Shown here: positions 39,269 to 63,538 of the stretch, piece by piece | How the letters are laid out: every line of letters begins with the position of its first letter | Numbering within the stretch: position 1 is the first letter of the stretch | Sequence record: OM362897.1 | Length of the DNA stretch: 64,000 nt | Strand: one strand, 5' to 3' | Source of the DNA: Escherichia phage SKA64 | Translations under genes and position numbers: made by a program | The notes under the pieces: model-generated | Seen by the model: the letters and a program-made list of their open reading frames with translations, nothing else | What the model was told of the DNA's origin: nothing | Databases searched by the model: none

Positions 39269-40210
39269 ATGGTGTTAATTGGTAGCCGTGCATTACAAAT
39301 TCATGCTATGGACATGGGAAAAGACTTGTATCGCCCTTGTGTAGATTTAGATTACCTGTGTACAGAACAAGAGTGGGAAGAATTATCAAAAATGTTCTCT
39401 CAAGACGAGTTTGTTGAACTTGTAGAACGTAAAGGGAGCAAAGGCCATGTCAAAATGATAGCTGGTGCACATTTGGAATACGATATTGCTTCTCAAGGAG
39501 ATAGCACAGAAGCTTTGATTAGTTATTGTGAAGATTCTGATGATGTTCGTCGAACTTACGCTGGACATGTTGTTGCTCCTTTAGATGTGCTCTACCTTCT
39601 TAAAATGAGTCATCGTTTTAAAAAGGATAGTCCTCACTTCTTTAAAACTATGAAAGATATTCATTTCATGCGGTCACTGGGCGCAAAGATCCCAGAAAAT
39701 CTTAAGAGTATTTATGAGTTGCGTGAGAAAGAAACATACACTTACTCTCATCCGAACTTAAACGTAAAAAGTAAAGAGTTCTTTAAAGGTGACGAGGTTC
39801 CGTATGTTTATGATCATGATTCTATCCATGAAGCAATCGCGTTAATGGATGCTCCAGCATATAAATCTTATATGAAAGATGGAAGTGAAGTTATGACCAG
39901 CAAAGAAAAGTTTTTTGCTCAACCAAAACATGTGCGGCTGTTAGGTGTTTATGAAGAAGCGTGTGTTTTGGCTTTGGAACGTTCACAAATTCCTTTCGGT
40001 GAAGAGATCGGAGGTCCAACCCCTAAGCAAAGTTTTATAATGGCTTTATCTAAAGTCTGCACATCCATCACTAGTGGTTGGTTTAGGGAATATGCTTGGG
40101 AAAACTTTTATGTTGTTATTAAGCTATATGAAAACATGGGCGAAAACGACTATGTTGAACGTTTTAAAGCTAATCAACATGTAGTAAAGCCTTTTGAAGG
40201 AGGTTATTAA
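39269..40210 (+). CDS. hypothetical protein
   Basis: 313-aa ORF. Confidence 0.4.
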   Translation: MVLIGSRALQIHAMDMGKDLYRPCVDLDYLCTEQEWEELSKMFSQDEFVELVERKGSKGHVKMIAGAHLEYDIASQGDSTEALISYCEDSDDVRRTYAGHVVAPLDVLYLLKMSHRFKKDSPHFFKTMKDIHFMRSLGAKIPENLKSIYELREKETYTYSHPNLNVKSKEFFKGDEVPYVYDHDSIHEAIALMDAPAYKSYMKDGSEVMTSKEKFFAQPKHVRLLGVYEEACVLALERSQIPFGEEIGGPTPKQSFIMALSKVCTSITSGWFREYAWENFYVVIKLYENMGENDYVERFKANQHVVKPFEGGY

Positions 40211-43619: not shown

Positions 43620-43975
43620 AGAGCGTCTCTGTTCGATTTAGGTGGGTTCTAGCTTACTTGTGCAGTGCTCTCTCGTATAACTCAATGATCAATTCATCCT
43701 CTACTGTAATACGCGCCATTTGATCCGTCTTGAGTATTGTTGGTTGGTAGTGGTGCATTTCACTATTGATACTACAATCCCATTCGTCATAACCTAAATA
43801 CTCTCCTACATGGACCTTAACCATAAAGGGAAACGGGTTATCTACCAAAAATGCCATACAACCTTCTTCGATTTTATTTAACACACGACCTCCTATTGCT
43901 ACAGATATGAAAAAACCCGCCGAAGCGGGTTCTATTGCTACGATAGGATCACTATCCTATAGTATTGTTTCTGTG

Positions 43976-44257
43976 TCAAGCCTTAGCGTAGAAAAACTTC
44001 TCATATTCAGATTTTGTTACGATTGTGGGGCAACCTTTTGTTCCATCCTCGATAACAGGGGCTTCTACCATTCTGGTGTTGAATAAGCAATAAGTTCCAC
44101 GCATGTAAATACCCAGTTTTGTTTCTACGATGTGCTCTTTACTTACGCTTGAAAACTTAATCTCACCATCGGAGTCTCTTATAGCAATAAGCGCATGTTC
44201 GGGCCAATCTTTTCCTTTTGCTCCTAAAGCATTATACAATTCTTGAACGAGTTCCAT
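43976..44257 (-). CDS. hypothetical protein
   Basis: 93-aa ORF. Confidence 0.3.
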   Translation of the reverse strand: MELVQELYNALGAKGKDWPEHALIAIRDSDGEIKFSSVSKEHIVETKLGIYMRGTYCLFNTRMVEAPVIEDGTKGCPTIVTKSEYEKFFYAKA

Positions 44258-44606
44258 ATGACCTCCTTATTAAATAACAAATTTTTCTTCTTCTGGCTTA
44301 TCGTAATCTGGAGAATAAACATGTGCGGGATTAAAACCTTTAAAATTTCCGCGACCTTTACGTGGACAGTTGAATGTGCGAGCTTGATGATCCCCAAAAG
44401 ATTTCCCACAATGCATACATTTAAAATCAGTGCGTTTAGTCATGCCATATCTCCTTTTAAAAGGCTGCACCTATTGAAGATGCAGCTTTGATAGATTATT
44501 TAGATGAGTCTAAAATGTCTTTTACTTTTGCCGTGATAACGTCTTGATATTTGTTAATAAGATAGCCTACAACTACACCTACGATAAATGAAACCATTAT
44601 TTCTCC

Positions 44607-45215
44607 TTATTTAAGTGGTGAGAGAACAATCTCTCGGTTTTTTAAGAACCAAAGCATGTCATCTTGATCATAGTCTGATCCCTCTGTAGTAGAATTTTTG
44701 ATAGAATCAAAAAACCAACGAGGTATACCAAAACAACTTCCAGATGACTGCATGTCTTTCTGCGACATTTTAAATGTGATTGGAAAATCACAATTATCAA
44801 TCTCTCGTATATCTGCTGAAGATAAGATTGTAACTTCAACCAGTTCGTCGTTAGATGTAGTATCGTTGTCTTCCTGAATAATGTCAAATGCTTTTTGCAC
44901 ATCTTTTGCATCTAATGTTAAACCTGTGGCTTTCTGAAAAGCCGAAACAAAAATTAGAGCTTCTTCAGAGCAAGGGGCTTCCAGCAAATGAGCCATAATA
45001 GGTGACAAGCAAATGTTAAGATCTTTGTCATACCAACGAACAATCCACACAGGCGTTGCTCCGTTTTGTTTGTCACGAGCCAAAATTGTAACGTGCTGAC
45101 CTTCTTCTGGTATATGATACAAACCAGAAAAACCAGGGCCTGTAGTAGATTTTTTGACACGTGCTACGTGTCCCACTTCTAAAGGATCTTTACCATCCCA
45201 AATCTTCTCTTCCAT
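44607..45215 (-). CDS. hypothetical protein
   Basis: 202-aa ORF. Confidence 0.4.
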   Translation of the reverse strand: MEEKIWDGKDPLEVGHVARVKKSTTGPGFSGLYHIPEEGQHVTILARDKQNGATPVWIVRWYDKDLNICLSPIMAHLLEAPCSEEALIFVSAFQKATGLTLDAKDVQKAFDIIQEDNDTTSNDELVEVTILSSADIREIDNCDFPITFKMSQKDMQSSGSCFGIPRWFFDSIKNSTTEGSDYDQDDMLWFLKNREIVLSPLK

Positions 45216-45647
45216 ATAACCTCCTAAATAACATCTTTGAAATAGTGAATCACTTCAATATTATGGTACAAAGTGCTTCGCTCTTTTGTGTACTCTGTTT
45301 TAGTAACAAACACTTTTGCAATACCGTACTTATGTGCTGGTAGGTTTGGATTGGTTTGCATAATTTCTTTCACTACACTTATAGTTTCGTGCTCGGATTC
45401 CCAATAAGTGAAGTAACCCTCACTATCAACGATTAAAGACTCGTTTTCAAGATCTACAAAACAGAAAAATATTGACGGATGGCTCATTCTTTTTCTTCAA
45501 CCTTCCTCAAAGCTTTTTGATCGAATATAGCGTGTTGCAACTCGCCGTTTTCATCAAACCAAGTTACTTTACAAGATTCACCATAACTTTCTATTACTGT
45601 CATTTGTTTGTTTGCACCTTTAAGACAAACCACATCACCTACTTGCA

Positions 45648-46097
45648 TCATGATTGAGTTCCTTTTTGTTTTTCAATAGCTGCACGAATTTCTGCTAAAG
45701 GCTCTGCTACCAGATCTTCAACTTCTTGGATTTGTTCATTCATTACGTCACGAACCATTTGAATCCGCTCTTCAAGGGAAACAGCAAGTTCATCTGCATA
45801 AGCCATATTAAGAACGTGGTAGAAATTTTCTTGTGCACTTAAAGCACCAGATAACAAATAATCCTGATCTTCCTCTGGTAAAAGCATGTGTTGCTCATAT
45901 TCAGCAAAAGTGTTTTTGTTAATCTCAAGCAAAGCACCCATCATAACATCATACTGATAATCTTTATGACCAGGGTTGTTTAAAATAACATCTTCAAAGA
46001 TATTAAGAAGAATCTTAGTAACAAAAGCATTGTTTTCGGCACCTTCCATCTGACGGATTACCGTGATTACTTCTTTTTCTTTAGCGTTTTGGCTCAT
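45648..46097 (-). CDS. hypothetical protein
   Basis: 149-aa ORF. Confidence 0.35.
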   Translation of the reverse strand: MSQNAKEKEVITVIRQMEGAENNAFVTKILLNIFEDVILNNPGHKDYQYDVMMGALLEINKNTFAEYEQHMLLPEEDQDYLLSGALSAQENFYHVLNMAYADELAVSLEERIQMVRDVMNEQIQEVEDLVAEPLAEIRAAIEKQKGTQS

Positions 46098-47291
46098 AGT
46101 GTTTCTCCTCTGATTCTATTTGGATATAACCTGTGGTTTTGCACGGGTTACACTCGTAAATTTGACCTACATCCGCCATAACATATCCTGCACCACCACA
46201 ATAGGGGCAAGACATAGGAGGACAAGGTATGGACGTAGTGATTGTTACGACATTATCAATTTTCAACATTTTCGCCATTATTACCATTCCGCTATTAACG
46301 TCAAACCAAGTGCATCGTTAAAACGCTCAACATTTGAGTATAGGTATGGAGGGGTTATTTGCTCTAAAATTTGTGCTGCTTCCACTTGGTGCTCTATGTT
46401 TTGAGAAGTTCGGGCATAAACTAAGACACCCATTTTATTCAAAATAAAAACAGAATCAGACCCATCCAGCTTATCAACGGCTGCATACATTTTAGTCATA
46501 TCTTCTCCTGGATTACCATTCAGCAACAAGACTAGGATTCATAGCAAAAGCTTTGAAAGTTGTTATATCATGACTAACATTAAAACTAACACCTTTTACT
46601 TTCTCTAGTATTTGAACTTTCGTCTCTCCGTCCCACGGTAGGATGATAACACCATCTTCTGTGATCAACCACCAATGGTTCTCTCCATCTCGTGAATCTT
46701 TTGCTTTGTATAGAAAATTGGAACTCATTCTTCCTCCTGTTCGGTATTATTCACTTGTGAGACACAATGTAACACAAGCTTTGTGAGTTTGTCAAGGATC
46801 TAATTACATTCTACAGAAGAAGAGGGTTAATAACTATAGGAATAGTCTTACTATAGGTGCAATACTAGTTAAGAGTTAGATTGATAGGTAAGATTTATCT
46901 TAAACAGATAATTGATAGGTGAATCAGCATTGACTTTTTCAAAAAAATATGGTACCCTAAACATATGTTTACGAGCGATAGCGAGTAGTAGATTTCTATA
47001 TAATAATGTTTCATGTTACTCACGATAGTGAGGTATGAAACGTAAGTGAAGGTAGATAAACTATGATCATCTATCTACCATCTATTAATCAATATAGATC
47101 TAATGTTAGACTAACAGTTATCCAACAAACAATAGCAGTCCATATAACAAGTAATGATCTACAAACTACATCCCATTCAAATACATTGTATGTTAACCAT
47201 TCTCCCATCACAACAGAAGAACCCAACCAACATCCAACAACAACTATAATCCAATAAAAGAATCCTACAGTAGAGTATACAGCAAAAGCTT

Positions 47292-47711
47292 TTAACATCT
47301 TTCCTCCAGAAGTTGTTCAACAGTTTGACGAGTATGATTGTCCCAGTAAACCTTAGTGAAGTCAAGAGTTCCTTGTTCGTTTCTCTTAGTTTCGAAGAAG
47401 TATCCACCTTCTCTTTCTACTCTGTCTCTAATGTGCTCTATGAGATGCTTTTTACAAGGCGCTGATAAACAATAGTCATACTCCCCACGAAGCAATGCTA
47501 TAGCTGCAAGTCTGTTATCCCCAACTTGAGATATTGTCCAAGAAAGCATACTACCTTCTATACCTAAAGGTGTTTGTTTAATTGAATATCCACCATACCG
47601 ACTGATAGAAATTATGGCAAGTGGTTCTCCTGTTAGAGATCTTCCTAATGCACCTTCTGTTGGACTTCCTTCAACAATACGTTTGAAAAAAGCTTTGATC
47701 TTACCTAACAT
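47292..47711 (-). CDS. hypothetical protein
   Basis: 139-aa ORF. Confidence 0.35.
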   Translation of the reverse strand: MLGKIKAFFKRIVEGSPTEGALGRSLTGEPLAIISISRYGGYSIKQTPLGIEGSMLSWTISQVGDNRLAAIALLRGEYDYCLSAPCKKHLIEHIRDRVEREGGYFFETKRNEQGTLDFTKVYWDNHTRQTVEQLLEERC

Positions 47712-59461: not shown

Positions 59462-59830
59462 TTATTCAATGCAAGCATTATTTGCATCTTCAATTCTGTC
59501 TTTCACCCATTGAAGACGTAACGTGTTGGTATGACACGCCAAGTTTATACACTCTGAAAGGTAATCCATGCAATCTGCATTGAACGGAAGATTGTAGTCC
59601 AGCCCTGCACATGTAAATTGTTTCCTCATTTCATATTTCAAGCGGTCCAACAAACTATCCCGCCATCTTCTATCTTCTTCTCTAGTTGTCTCACCAACAA
59701 AATCATTTACATAATCTACCAGACAACCACATAAGCCACTCGTTGTGCGATTCATTGCAGGATAGTTGGCAATCCATGCTTTATAGAAGCGAAGCAATGT
59801 TGCACTGCTCAACGGAATACTATTTGTCAT
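59462..59830 (-). CDS. hypothetical protein, paralog family A member
   Basis: FYKAWIANY...SGLCGCL...AGLDYNLPFN...RLQWVKDRI. Confidence 0.4.
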   Translation of the reverse strand: MTNSIPLSSATLLRFYKAWIANYPAMNRTTSGLCGCLVDYVNDFVGETTREEDRRWRDSLLDRLKYEMRKQFTCAGLDYNLPFNADCMDYLSECINLACHTNTLRLQWVKDRIEDANNACIE

Positions 59831-60164
59831 TTTTCTCTCCTTCGTAATCTTGAATTCTATCTAGCACCCATTGTATACGATGTTTGTTTTTATGGCAAAT
59901 ATGTTTTTTATGTTCGAAGGTGTATTCTTCATAACCACCTTCATTAAACGGGAAATTGTAATCCAATCCTGCACCAATAAACTGTGATTTCATCTCCTGT
60001 TGTAGACGAGGTAACAGTTCATCAGGATATGTTCCCTCTACATACTTAATCAAACATATACACAAGCCACTCGTTGTGTGACCTTCTACCTCACCAGCAA
60101 GCCAAGCTTTGTAAAACTTCATTAGACGTAAACTACTCAACGGAACATTTTTACTCTCTTGCAT
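59820..60164 (-). CDS. hypothetical protein, paralog family A member
   Basis: FYKAWLAGE...SGLCICL...AGLDYNFPFN...RIQWVLDRI. Tandem with 59462-59830. Confidence 0.4.
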   Translation of the reverse strand: MQESKNVPLSSLRLMKFYKAWLAGEVEGHTTSGLCICLIKYVEGTYPDELLPRLQQEMKSQFIGAGLDYNFPFNEGGYEEYTFEHKKHICHKNKHRIQWVLDRIQDYEGEKNDK

Positions 60165-61727
60165 GATAATCTCCTCTCATCGTTAGCCATCTTTCATGGC
60201 AATCATCAATCACCAACATCATACGATCAATCTTAGGGAATTACAATCGAATTATCATAGGGGATTCCTATCAATTATCCCATATATACCGATTATTTTT
60301 GACACCCCACTCTTGTATAAAAAGTAACCCAAAATATCTACGGGGAGAGATTATTTCGGGACACCCTGTTTCATGGCAATCATGGCAAGAATATCTAATA
60401 GAATCAATATCATATGGCAAAAATCATGGCGCATACGTAAGAAGTGCTTAACGCGAATTTTCGGGCCGTCAGGTCCACGCAGCGACAATTCCCAAATATC
60501 ATGAGAATGAGAATAATTATCATTCGTATTCAATGACTTATGCAAGGCTTATGCCAACGTAGCGACAAGGTGGGCCACTTGATTATAAATCACACAAACA
60601 CTTATTTATCAATGGTTTGGCAACCTCATCATATGACGGAACAATGTCAACTGATCCCGCTCATGACAAGCAGACTATTATTTATATGAGAATGATTATT
60701 ATTTAAACGTTTATTAGCATAAAAACTAAAATAAATCAAGAATTTTCTGATTTTATTTACGTTTAAGAGAAGATGCTCAACATATCGCTACGCGATAGTA
60801 TTCGCCCCCGAAAGATTAGCCTTTATTTTCTTGTATGTTTATACGCTATGTGCACACTATGCAACCTGTCGCTATTCGCTCATGTTGCTACGTGCTAATA
60901 CTTCACCGTGCTAATGATCTTTGAGCGATAGCGATTATTTCATCTTGTAATTACCACAATGATTATTGTTATTGCGCTAATGTTATGATCTTGGTAATTA
61001 CATATAATGCTAATAATAAGCCAGCGCAATAAGTGTAAGCGTATTACGCTTGCAATTATTGCAAGCTACGCAGTAACAAGAAATAACCATCACCGATGGT
61101 TATGATTGTTGGGGTGTAGTTGGCTTATTATTAGCTCGCTATGTGTCCGGCATAGCGTGCTAATGATGACTCTGTGAATGATTCGTTTTGTAATGATTTC
61201 ATTTAGTCACTATTATGGCAATAGTTATTATTTTAATGGTTTCGTTTGTTATTGTTCGTTAGTTGGTTGTTTTGTCGTGTTATCGTTATCTTGCTTAGTA
61301 TTCATCATGGTTTGATTGTTTGTTGTTATCAATCATCTTGCTATTATTCCTTTGATTATGATTAGTTTGCTTATTGTTTTATGTTGTTTGTTGGTTAGTT
61401 GTTGCGAACTATTATCAACATTATAGTTATGCACTTATATTGCATAGATAAACATGGATAGATGATAATGGTTATCATTGCACTAGAAAGGAGGTAAAAG
61501 GGTGTTTTTGATGGTTTGTTGTTGGTTGTTGATCGATTTTAACCGCTTTAAATGGCTCTCTAACAGCCTGTTACCCTGGGAGGTATGGTTATTCATTTAA
61601 TGGTTGATTAGCTCGATACCGCGATCTATTCAGTTTTGTTCTGTGTCGGTTTTTCATAGGCGGAATCTATCAACATTATTCAGGCAAAAAGAAAGGGCGC
61701 TTAGTGCGCCCCTTGTTTTGTTGTCAA
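60165..61727. repeat. about 1.5-kb non-coding region with short repeats, palindromes and a GT-skewed tract
   Basis: No ORF of 60 aa or more except one doubtful 64-aa ORF. Repeats TTTCATGGCAATCAT (x2), GTGCTAATGAT (x2), GCGATAG-like motifs; palindromes at 61037-61064; GT-rich 61200-61440. Confidence 0.5.
61693..61714 (-). terminator. hairpin terminator candidate downstream of 61728-62147
   Basis: GGGCGC-TTAGT-GCGCCC flanked by A/T runs. Same sequence recurs at 62260-62276. Confidence 0.45.
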
Positions 61728-62147
61728 TTATAACGCTTCATAGATTGAGTAGATCCGGTTCGCCAGGTCATTACGAAAGCGGAATTTTTCATCACGTTTA
61801 ATCATCAGATCCTTAAAACCGCATTCTTTCAAGGCTTCATTAACTTTACTGCGGCATACTTTCATATTGTCCTGCGCGTCACCAATAAACTTATTGCTAT
61901 GATGCATTGCTTTGATCTCTTCCTCTAATACCAGGGCAACTACACGGACCGGATCAAGCTGATATGCGGTAACATCCATGCGGCATTGTAAACGGCTTTT
62001 AACATCGTTTACCGGATATACTGCAACCTCTTCCCCGTCAACGTTCACGATAACCAATTTACCATCGATTTCGAAGCCTTTGGCGGCGCTACCGTGACAA
62101 AAAGCGTTATCGAAGGAGTAAGCTGGATTATTTGATTTAATGTTCAT
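61728..62147 (-). CDS. hypothetical protein (GC-richer module)
   Basis: 139-aa ORF. Visibly higher G+C than the rest of the window. Confidence 0.4.
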   Translation of the reverse strand: MNIKSNNPAYSFDNAFCHGSAAKGFEIDGKLVIVNVDGEEVAVYPVNDVKSRLQCRMDVTAYQLDPVRVVALVLEEEIKAMHHSNKFIGDAQDNMKVCRSKVNEALKECGFKDLMIKRDEKFRFRNDLANRIYSIYEAL

Positions 62148-62257
62148 GATGTTGTCCTTTGTTTCGTTTCGTTGTTTGCTGCCAGTGAGTTAAATATAAT
62201 ATAACGCCGATCCCCTGTCAATAGGGGATAGCGCATTATTTACATTTCTTTACGTTA

Positions 62258-62279
62258 AAGGGCGCTTAGTGCGCCCCTT
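62258..62279 (-). terminator. hairpin terminator candidate downstream of 62288-62655
   Basis: Second copy of GGGCGC-TTAGT-GCGCCC, directly after the gene's stop. Confidence 0.45.
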
Positions 62280-62287
62280 GTATAATC

Positions 62288-62655
62288 TTACTTTGTGCGG
62301 TTGTGAACGTTATCGCGTTCAACCATCAAGGCAAGGCGGATCAGTTGATCAGTTGTATCGCGTAAATTGTCGGGCCATGTTTTACTGTTCCAGCTATCCA
62401 TGTTTGATTGTATATAGGTTTCAATGGCTTGATCCATATTATCAAACAAGTTTTCCTCCAGGCTCTCGGCTGTTTCACACTGGAAAGCATTAGCGACACT
62501 ATTAATCAATAAGCAAGCCAGTAAATCAGCATTACGCCAATTTTTACGGATAGTTTCATCTTCCAGATAAGCTACCAAATTAATATTTGCGCCAGTGGTT
62601 GACGTTGCGATCACTTCTTGCGCTTTTTCAACTGCTTTAATTGCCGATTTGCTCA
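62288..62655 (-). CDS. hypothetical protein (GC-richer module)
   Basis: Start chosen at ATG 62655 (MSKSAIKAV...) with upstream aagaggaaaag RBS-like. The track ORF extends to 62734 through the promoter-like region. Confidence 0.4.
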
Positions 62656-63538
62656 TCTTCTTTTCCTCTTTGTGGGCTTGCTGTATTGCTCGCCCTACGT
62701 GATAAATAATAATAGAAAGGTGATCCGGTGTCAATAGGTAGAATTGTAAAGATTCGATAGTTTATCTCTTTGATGTTTTGTTGTTTGATAGGTGTTAGCT
62801 ATCAATATATAGCGGGGTCGTCCGGTGATTACCTCCCCCGTTGCCAGTGCCGCCCGTTGAATAAGCATAACAAAAAACAGGACAAAAGCAAGCCCTGTTT
62901 TTGTAAAGATTAGATGATTTGCATATCCTCCACGATAATTTCTAATTTCCAAACAAGATGATCTAAGCTCCCTGATAAAAATGATTCCGATACATAACCG
63001 CCATCGGACACCGTAGCAAGGATCTCGCCATTTGCTTGCTCTTTGATTTGAACATCCAGGCGGTTAGCCTTTGCTTTGTTCAGGACGGCGATCAGGCGGT
63101 TAGCTGTAGTCATGGTGTTTTCCTTCCAGTTGTGAGCGGCACCATTGCCGCCCTACGTGATACATCTTACACTATCAGATACATTGTGCAAGCTATTTTA
63201 GATCTCGTCACCTATATAATCAGATCTGTTCTTCTCTGTCATACGTTTAAACAATTCTTGCATATGGCTGATAGCTTGCAATGTGTCTTCTTCCAGGCTT
63301 GAATCGAGATAATCAGGATCATTCTTTACCTTGCTATGGTTGTGATACCGCAACGCTGCTAATACCTTTCTAACTTGTTCTGCATTCATTTTTATTACTC
63401 CTTAAAACCAGGTGCCAACCGTTTCCAATAGGTCACTGACTACCAGAACAACATTGATTAGCACATATTTAATCAGGAAGGGGATAAGCGCCAGCGTCGC
63501 TACTATGATCCCCATTGTGATGATTACCTTTCTCATCG

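Follow-up and report, generated by a model that had tools for sequence, protein, structure and literature searches.

In the 64,000-nucleotide (nt) stretch of Escherichia phage SKA64 analysed here (record OM362897.1; hereafter the window), the strongest strand skew was found in a tract at positions 61168–61427 that is rich in T and poor in C and A on the plus strand. The tract is non-coding, it lies at a defined distance inside the right direct terminal repeat of the genome, and both its composition and the architecture of the surrounding DNA are conserved across five lineages of the subfamily Stephanstirmvirinae. We tentatively favour the interpretation that it may be a non-coding, cis-acting DNA element belonging to a packaging or end-processing assembly at the concatemer junction of a short-terminal-repeat myovirus.

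An initial annotation had described positions 61200–61440 as a strongly skewed tract consisting almost entirely of T and G, and had considered such skew to be unusual; the string that it quoted corresponds to positions 61244–61285. Base counts over this interval were T 126, A 47, G 43 and C 25, giving 70.1% G+T (z = 4.4 relative to all 241-nt windows in the 64 kb, which had a mean of 50.5% and a standard deviation of 4.4%), and the most extreme 241-nt window (73.4% G+T) was located at 61164–61404. For segment scoring, each G or T was given +1 and each A or C was given −2, and the maximal-scoring segment was taken. This segment, at 61224–61404 (the tract core), had a score of 58 with 77% G+T, compared to 33 for the next-best segment on either strand of the window and 24 ± 2.6 for the maximal score in 60 second-order Markov simulations (largest 32). 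In the complete genome of phAPEC8 (147,737 bp), the homologous tract (record positions 5802–5982) scored 55 against a runner-up of 30 and was the G+T extreme of the genome (z about −5.3 on the record strand). Thus, the skew is the strongest of the 64-kb window and, by homology, of the whole 147.7-kb phAPEC8 genome, and the reservation attached to the initial annotation, that quantitative skew analysis might find the tract to be ordinary relative to the genome, does not apply because the tract is a genome-wide outlier. The wording "almost entirely T and G" overstated the extent, as 30% of bases are A or C. G content (18%) does not depart from the genome average; the skew consists of an excess of T together with depletion of C and A. 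When composition was measured per 200 nt, the window-wide maximum of T (55.5%) and the window-wide minima of A (16%) and C (7.5%) all fell in the tract. A weaker skew covered approximately 61099–61658 (68–74% G+T per 80 nt) with a break at 61419–61498.

No open frame passes through the tract, with stops present in all six frames in every lineage compared (5–23 stops per frame in other genera), and no period-3 signal was detected in the tract. Together with the broken frames of the small open reading frames (ORFs) described below, these results rule out protein coding on either strand.

The window belongs to a Phapecoctavirus (phAPEC8-like, Stephanstirmvirinae) and is 95–96% identical to several deposited genomes. 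The tract lies inside a 1.5-kb gene-free gap between two minus-strand genes (Table 1). Most deposited records, including that of phAPEC8, show no gene in this gap and annotate just a terminator, while small hypothetical ORFs have been called there in the EP57, ETEC-TG and WPEC records. The linear records of Schickermooser (329 bp) and Mt1B1_P17 (328 bp) have exact terminal repeats that mapped to 60449/60450–60777, and a 328-bp terminal repeat has been reported for Schickermooser (PMC6563267). Similarly, the phi92 record has a 343-bp right terminal repeat annotated at the homologous site, and a 342-bp repeat was described for BME3, the packaging of which was analysed with PhageTerm (PMC12210895). 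Since the terminal repeats of the linear records map into the gap, the gap represents the concatemer junction. By homology, the direct terminal repeat of the window is placed at 60450–60777, with predicted physical genome ends at 60450 and 60777. The tract is situated 390–630 bp inside the right repeat (its start at 61168 is ~390 bp from the repeat). The genome's own orientation corresponds to the minus strand of the window, and the order along the window is the first left-arm gene, a leader, the terminal repeat, ~900 bp of right-end non-coding DNA, a minus-strand terminator and the last right-arm gene. The sequences at the repeat boundaries (60449/60450 and 60777/60778, equivalent to positions 1 and 343 of the phi92 record L018) were conserved between Phapecoctavirus and phi92, reading GTGCTT followed across the boundary by AACGCGA, and TTTAAGA.AAG...CT followed by CAACA; these are candidate terminase cut sites. 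The lowest G+C content of any 100-bp stretch in the window (18%) was observed at 60672–60771, at the inner end of the terminal repeat beside the 60777 boundary.

Related phages were compared in five lineages: Phapecoctavirus; the phiWec179 group; Justusliebigvirus (phi92, arall, muut and phiWec187); the Klebsiella phages KP13-26, KP2025 and FKP3; and Citrobacter phage Tr1. The tract was found at the same position in all five, and in phAPEC8 it is the strongest skew segment of the genome. The order of parts was also common to the five lineages, namely a palindrome cluster, a 9-bp hairpin, a longer hairpin, the C-poor tract, a TATGCA..TGCATA hairpin, a palindrome resembling a Fur box, a conserved block and the minus-strand terminator. 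Tract length ranged from 237 to 384 bp. The property shared by the lineages is depletion of C (5–12%) rather than G+T richness. The A content of the tract was 19–21% in Phapecoctavirus and the phiWec179 group and 31–36% elsewhere. Outside Phapecoctavirus, tracts contained 31–36% A, 5–8% C, 13–21% G and 41–48% T, relative to a genome average of 31% A, 19% C, 20% G and 31% T.

The right-hand part of the region was also present in the Avunavirus Av-05, a member of the rV5 subfamily Vequintavirinae (record L016, 2230–2480), where we observed the Fur-like palindrome, G+T-rich patches, GATCGATTTTAAGCG, the conserved block and the terminator; therefore, the module reaches beyond Stephanstirmvirinae. 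Phage records labelled Campylobacter, Acinetobacter, Pseudomonas and Serratia showed 72–97% identity to the region, although some of these host labels look doubtful.

The three hairpins that precede the tract exhibited covariation across lineages. Hairpin 1 was invariant in 10 sequences from the five lineages. In hairpin 2, compensatory double changes occurred in 6 of the 9 pairs, with G-U variants that pair on the plus strand only, and hairpin 3 had compensatory changes in three pairs (GC/CG, CG/GC and UA/CG), so that nine pairs showed compensatory double changes overall. The consensus fold of the hairpin block had an energy of −46 kcal/mol on the plus strand and −35.6 kcal/mol on the minus strand, and U-G or G-U wobble pairs, which occur at several positions, are replaced by A-C mismatches when the minus strand is folded. 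This suggests that the hairpins at 61026–61167 form a structure in single-stranded plus-strand DNA or in RNA. A helix (CTACA/TGTAG) that would enclose the three hairpins is likewise possible on the plus strand only. Within the tract itself, a structured RNA or structured single-stranded DNA was ruled out by z-scores near zero on both strands.

Table 1. Positions and strands of the genes and non-coding parts at the predicted genome ends in the window.
Feature	Position	Strand	Description and basis
First left-arm gene, 114 amino acids (aa)	59820–60164	−	Homologue of phAPEC8_0018 and Schickermooser gp001 (linear record 614–958); ORF list
Leader between terminal repeat and first left-arm gene	60165–60449		No gene annotated in relatives; 24-nt tandem repeat at 60230–60279
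Direct terminal repeat (predicted)	60450–60777		Single copy in present assembly; mapped from linear relatives
Variable non-coding stretch	60778–61019		Rich in GCTAAT/ATTAGC; many insertions and deletions among close relatives
Palindrome cluster, hairpin 1	61026–61066	+	GCTTGCAA-TTA-TTGCAAGC; 18-nt arms at 61026–61043 and 61045–61062; inverted repeat
Hairpin 2	61083–61103	+	9-bp stem, 3-nt loop
Hairpin 3	61127–61167	+	ATTAGC..CTATG / CATAG..GCTAAT; inverted repeat
Skewed tract	61168–61427		T-rich, C- and A-poor on plus strand; core 61224–61404; composition statistics
Conserved island in tract	61259–61273		TTAGTTGRTTGTTTT; within a ~34-nt stretch ~80% identical to Klebsiella phage KP13-26
Hairpin 4	61428–61446	+	TATGCA-N7-TGCATA; read from the sequence; kept in phi92, KP13-26 and KP2025, partly in Tr1
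Fur-box-like palindrome	61462–61479		ATGATAATGGTTATCATT; same place in other lineages
Second, weaker G+T-rich patch	61499–61578		68% G+T; AGGAGG (Shine-Dalgarno-like) and GTG opening a non-conserved 32-codon ORF
Conserved non-coding block	61580–61691		TTGATTAGCTCGATACCGCGATCTATTCA...; ~80% identical in Justusliebigvirus; matches as far as Avunavirus and Klebsiella phages
Intrinsic terminator of last right-arm gene	61692–61714	−	Terminator scan; ARNold annotation in phAPEC8 and Schickermooser
Last right-arm gene, 139 aa	61728–62147	−	Homologue of phAPEC8_0017; ORF list and annotation

Short repeats were concentrated around the tract. The motif GCTAAT/ATTAGC occurred in nine copies within 1.25 kb (span 60713–61612), compared to 0.4 expected (P about 1e-9), and recurred in phi92 and the Klebsiella phages, making it a candidate repeated binding site. 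GCTAAT copies in the variable stretch began at 60815, 60894, 60910, 60976 and 61009, and an exact 12-mer that includes this type of motif (CGTGCTAATGAT) was present at both 60907 and 61156. In the flanks of the tract, AATGAT occurred 8 times (1.5 expected), and GTTA in the terminal region was oriented predominantly on the plus strand (14 vs 4). When the tracts of four divergent lineages were pooled and compared to a first-order Markov expectation, enriched words included GTTA (35 vs 13.5, z = 6.3), AATGA (13 vs 2.3, z = 7.4) and TAGTT (21 vs 7.3, z = 5.1). Tandem Repeats Finder returned just a weak 7-nt repeat in the tract (four copies, 61374–61403). A regular tandem array or helically phased bending was ruled out by the lack of periodicity in four lineages.

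The palindrome at 61462–61479 matched 15 of 19 positions of the Fur consensus GATAATGATAATCATTATC and 12 of 13 positions of the AATGATTATCATT core. It is one of the three best matches to this core in the window, the other two of which lie inside the terminal repeat. The best match to the E. coli Fur consensus (16/19) was at 60503, and six of the window's 11 top-scoring matches fell within 60503–61482. Fur-box-like palindromes at 60503–60527, 60686–60706 and 61462–61482 are thus grouped in the terminal repeat and to its right, and palindromes occupy the same places in other genera (e.g., arall, L004, at approximately 2365–2385, 2560–2580, 3423–3440 and 3480–3497).

The preference for a cis-acting genome-end element stems from the position of the tract, the conserved order of the module, the co-oriented C-free words, the repeat-rich flanks and the precedent of phage T7. 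In replicating concatemers, the 328-bp repeat would be present at the junction as a single copy, and the tract would occupy DNA that separates this copy from the terminator of the last right-arm gene. The ~900-bp right flank may form a nucleoprotein assembly on which terminase would recognise the junction and initiate both cleavage and packaging, with the GCTAAT repeats, the three covarying hairpins, the C-poor tract, the fourth hairpin and the Fur-box-like palindrome as its members, and further end-processing proteins may also act on it. The tract would contribute an AT-rich stretch of 240–380 bp with little capacity for secondary structure, and its weak, co-oriented sites (GTTA, TTAGTT and AATGAT) could allow a multimeric DNA-binding protein to wrap or spread along it. 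Such co-oriented sites are free of C and would thereby deplete C on one strand. Binding of a protein to the tract, and any contribution of the tract to packaging or end processing, is what we infer from this arrangement.

Among described systems, the T7 concatemer junction comes closest, being alike in setting and logic but not in sequence or skew. Chung and Hinkle (1990) reportedly found that concatemer processing in T7 depends on sequences, and on an inverted repeat, located immediately inside the right repeat. The T7 packaging signal lies within the concatemeric genome and comprises PacB, to which the small terminase binds, and PacC, where cleavage takes place (PMC9860248). In both phages the region is non-coding and is bounded by the last gene on one side and by the right-hand copy of a short direct terminal repeat on the other, with short repeats and an inverted repeat lying no more than a few hundred bases from the repeat boundary. 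Action in cis on concatemers is needed in T7 and would be expected for the present region. In contrast, the two regions share no sequence similarity and no similar words, the T7 region extends over ~240 bp compared to ~900 bp here, and T7 function was demonstrated by plasmid transduction assays. Therefore, while we regard the tract as a real, statistically extreme and conserved non-coding feature that would fall within a known kind, the cis-acting genome-end signals of terminal-repeat phages, we have not filed it as a member of the T7 system. A gene-free stretch also appears in the genome map of rV5, a related large myovirus, as a box labelled "non-coding" with no explanation, function or mention of skew (Kropinski et al. 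2013, PMC3606486). No function for the present region, nor for a C-poor, strand-skewed tract with hairpin neighbours, was described in the literature retrieved. In the same, limited literature collection, we found no account of how short terminal repeats are recognised, cut or duplicated in coliphages of the rV5, phi92 and phAPEC8 types.

Several observations weigh against a cis-acting packaging or end-processing element. The T7 region at 39539–39777 contains 47% G+T, has CCTAAAG-type repeats and shows no strand skew. Most of the tract could not be aligned between genera even though its composition was kept, and a constraint at the level of composition (through unwinding, RNA or mutation bias) therefore fits no less well than the binding of a specific protein. 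The whole 61050–62700 segment was 93–99% identical within the genus and even to the phiWec179 group; because the tract is no more conserved than this segment, its near-invariance within the genus is uninformative, and high identity was ruled out as a sign of constraint. No significant helical phasing or regular repeat spacing was detected in the tracts of four lineages, and the motifs in the tract are short, degenerate and irregularly spaced. Finally, the nearest cut site would be 390–630 bp away; to our knowledge, the binding sites of pac and cos systems lie nearer to the site of cutting. The suggestion in the initial annotation of a replication or packaging feature or a protein-binding array, three options among which it made no choice, is thus reasonable but unproven. 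It agrees with the non-coding, repeat-flanked setting at the junction in five lineages, but not with the lack of regular spacing, the absence of a skew switch or the finding that the tract is not the least stable DNA.

A replication-origin-type element, which we consider unlikely, would assign the GCTAAT repeats to an initiator as iterons and the tract to an unwinding region with a single-stranded, T-rich plus strand, the hairpins helping to load primase or helicase. Iteron origins (lambda ori, plasmid origins and the oriC unwinding element) similarly combine clustered short repeats with AT-rich DNA in which one strand is rich in T, and the tract is low in G+C (27%, ranking third or fourth from the bottom in the window), directly adjoins enriched short repeats and has neighbouring hairpins in which covariation and G-T wobble pairs fit the plus strand only. 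Its composition also equals the genome average with C changed to T on the plus strand, as deamination of an often single-stranded plus strand would yield. However, at 240–380 bp the tract exceeds known unwinding elements several-fold in length, it falls outside the six least stable stretches of the window by nearest-neighbour energy, and there is no adjoining initiator gene. On reading the sequence, we saw no DnaA-box cluster and just two 8/9 matches to the DnaA box (TTATCAACA). The genes on either side point in the same direction and do not diverge, and the cumulative G-C and T-A skews of phAPEC8 follow gene orientation, turning at 23.7, 57.9, 100.7 and 135.9 kb and not at 5.8 kb.

A further possibility, also doubtful, is that the tract and the covarying hairpins constitute a genome-end signal of an undescribed kind, found in Stephanstirmvirinae and some Vequintavirinae. 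One strand of such a signal might work in single-stranded form, for example in the loading of a primase-helicase or of terminase during duplication of the terminal repeat, or it might give rise to a structured junction RNA that is immune to Rho; the skew would then be a readout of the single-stranded state.

The fold of the hairpin block, with its mismatches on the minus strand, and the conserved depletion of C with positive G-C skew on the plus strand would also suit a plus-strand non-coding RNA, with a start ahead of hairpin 1 and a course across the hairpins and the tract towards the terminator at 61695–61720. In this case the depletion of C would render the untranslated RNA a poor substrate for Rho, or would stem from transcription-associated deamination of the non-template strand. 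The Phapecoctavirus terminator does have a usable plus-strand T-run, but it is bidirectional-looking in this genus only, the T-run being missing in phi92 and KP13-26. Moreover, no conserved sigma-70-type promoter was found upstream, as the number of promoter-like sites in the window, phi92, KP13-26 and Tr1 did not exceed shuffle expectation in any of the four, a result that also ruled out a sigma-70 promoter cluster. The promoter-associated hairpin motif of phAPEC8 ("PHIRE") was restricted to the right arm and absent from the gap. The tract had no structure beyond that expected from composition (z of 0.08 to −0.67), and a scan of 59500–62500 against Rfam 15 returned no family match other than one chance-level snoRNA hit (E = 0.8). 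We regard this RNA as quite improbable.

Transcription of the minus strand offers another explanation, to which we give little credence: a zone of Rho loading and termination, where read-through past the right-arm terminator would yield an untranslated, G-poor and unstructured RNA on which Rho stops transcription before the terminal repeat. The tract lies 264–524 nt downstream of the terminator of a block with strong sigma-70-type promoters, its composition rather than its sequence is conserved, and its minus-strand RNA is essentially unstructured (minimum free energy of −3.4 kcal/mol per 150 nt), with G at the 0.25th percentile of minus-strand windows and a C/G ratio (1.85) at the 95th percentile. 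Like rut sites, it would provide untranslated, unstructured, G-poor RNA downstream of a transcription unit, and in T7, pausing of the polymerase at the concatemer-junction signal is needed for DNA maturation. Unlike rut sites, this RNA is neither C-rich nor YC-rich, as C is average (49 vs a mean of 52 per 261 nt) and the YC dinucleotides bound by Rho are depleted (13 vs 27 ± 9). The RNA would be 52% A, and A-rich RNA is bound poorly by Rho. An efficient-looking intrinsic terminator is also already present upstream.

The tract may alternatively be a functionless or length-providing spacer with a composition that results from strand-biased mutation pressure, C to T on the plus strand; here too the probability appears low. 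Tract composition outside Phapecoctavirus does equal the genome average if most C became T, the tract varies in length and is largely unalignable between genera, and high identity within the genus extends to the flanking genes. However, all five lineages have retained a stretch of 240–380 bp at this position although their genomes are otherwise tightly packed, and conserved islands and enriched words are present. The extra depletion of A in Phapecoctavirus is not explained by C-to-T change, and we identified no process that would expose just this stretch and just this strand.

The explanation that G+T richness arises from genes for very small hydrophobic plus-strand peptides (second-position T encoding Val, Leu, Ile, Phe or Cys) is essentially refuted, and we consider it very improbable. 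There are four small plus-strand ORFs (32–45 codons) with hydrophobic products in or beside the tract, one of which follows a strong AGGAGG, and ORFs of this kind are annotated in some deposited records. The second-strongest keto/amino skew of the window, at 47204–47269, is indeed antisense to a 69-aa, very hydrophobic ORF (47089–47298, minus strand) and provides an example of such skew with a coding cause. However, all four ORFs were frameshifted, stopped or lacked a start in close relatives. ORF45 contained a frameshift or stop in 6 of 12 close relatives, ORF36 had a stop in phiWec179, and ORF32 (the one behind AGGAGG) had lost its start in 3 relatives and was prematurely stopped in 8 of 12 aligned genomes, remaining intact in 5, window included. 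Variable sites at codon positions 1, 2 and 3 (7/11/8, 4/2/4, 4/4/2 and 5/8/5 for the four ORFs) showed no excess at position 3, and the stops in other genera and the missing period-3 signal noted above apply here as well. Chi-like protection from RecBCD was rejected, as the G+T-rich strand is the wrong one for entry from the right end, and no GCTGGTGG was seen on reading, with no pattern search run.

At the right end of the genome, an identical terminator hairpin (AAGGGGCGCACTAAGCGCCCTTT, minus strand) was found on both sides of the 139-aa gene (61692–61716 and approximately 62257–62280). The gene has its own sigma-70-like promoter at 62221–62193, with 11 of 12 consensus matches, and an A/C-rich leader. 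Because of the terminators on both sides and the near-consensus promoter, the unit resembles an insulated single gene at the very end of the genome. The right arm of phAPEC8 contains ten sigma-70-type promoters, all directed at the right end, with a conserved hairpin after each. The 20-mers annotated as "PHIRE promoters" were GC-rich hairpins (GCGGCA-ATGG-TGCCGC) located just after TTGACA/-10 promoters, with sites at 556–575, 937–956, 1787–1806 and 3202–3221 of record L025 and within 43712–47561 of phAPEC8 (L027). Elsewhere in the window, a cluster of ten tRNA genes on the minus strand (3579–5501) matched the tRNA cluster of phAPEC8.

Large coliphages of the rV5, phi92 and phAPEC8 types are widely used in therapy cocktails. 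The physical genome ends are now placed in the window by homology, and the ~900 bp inside the right repeat form a conserved, multi-part non-coding module. To a specialist this location would be sensible rather than surprising, and with these coordinates the packaging signal of the phage group can be tested directly. If the tract is necessary in cis, it would define a packaging or replication signal for building transducing particles or minimal genomes; if it is dispensable, it would represent a clean case of strand-biased decay in phage spacer DNA.

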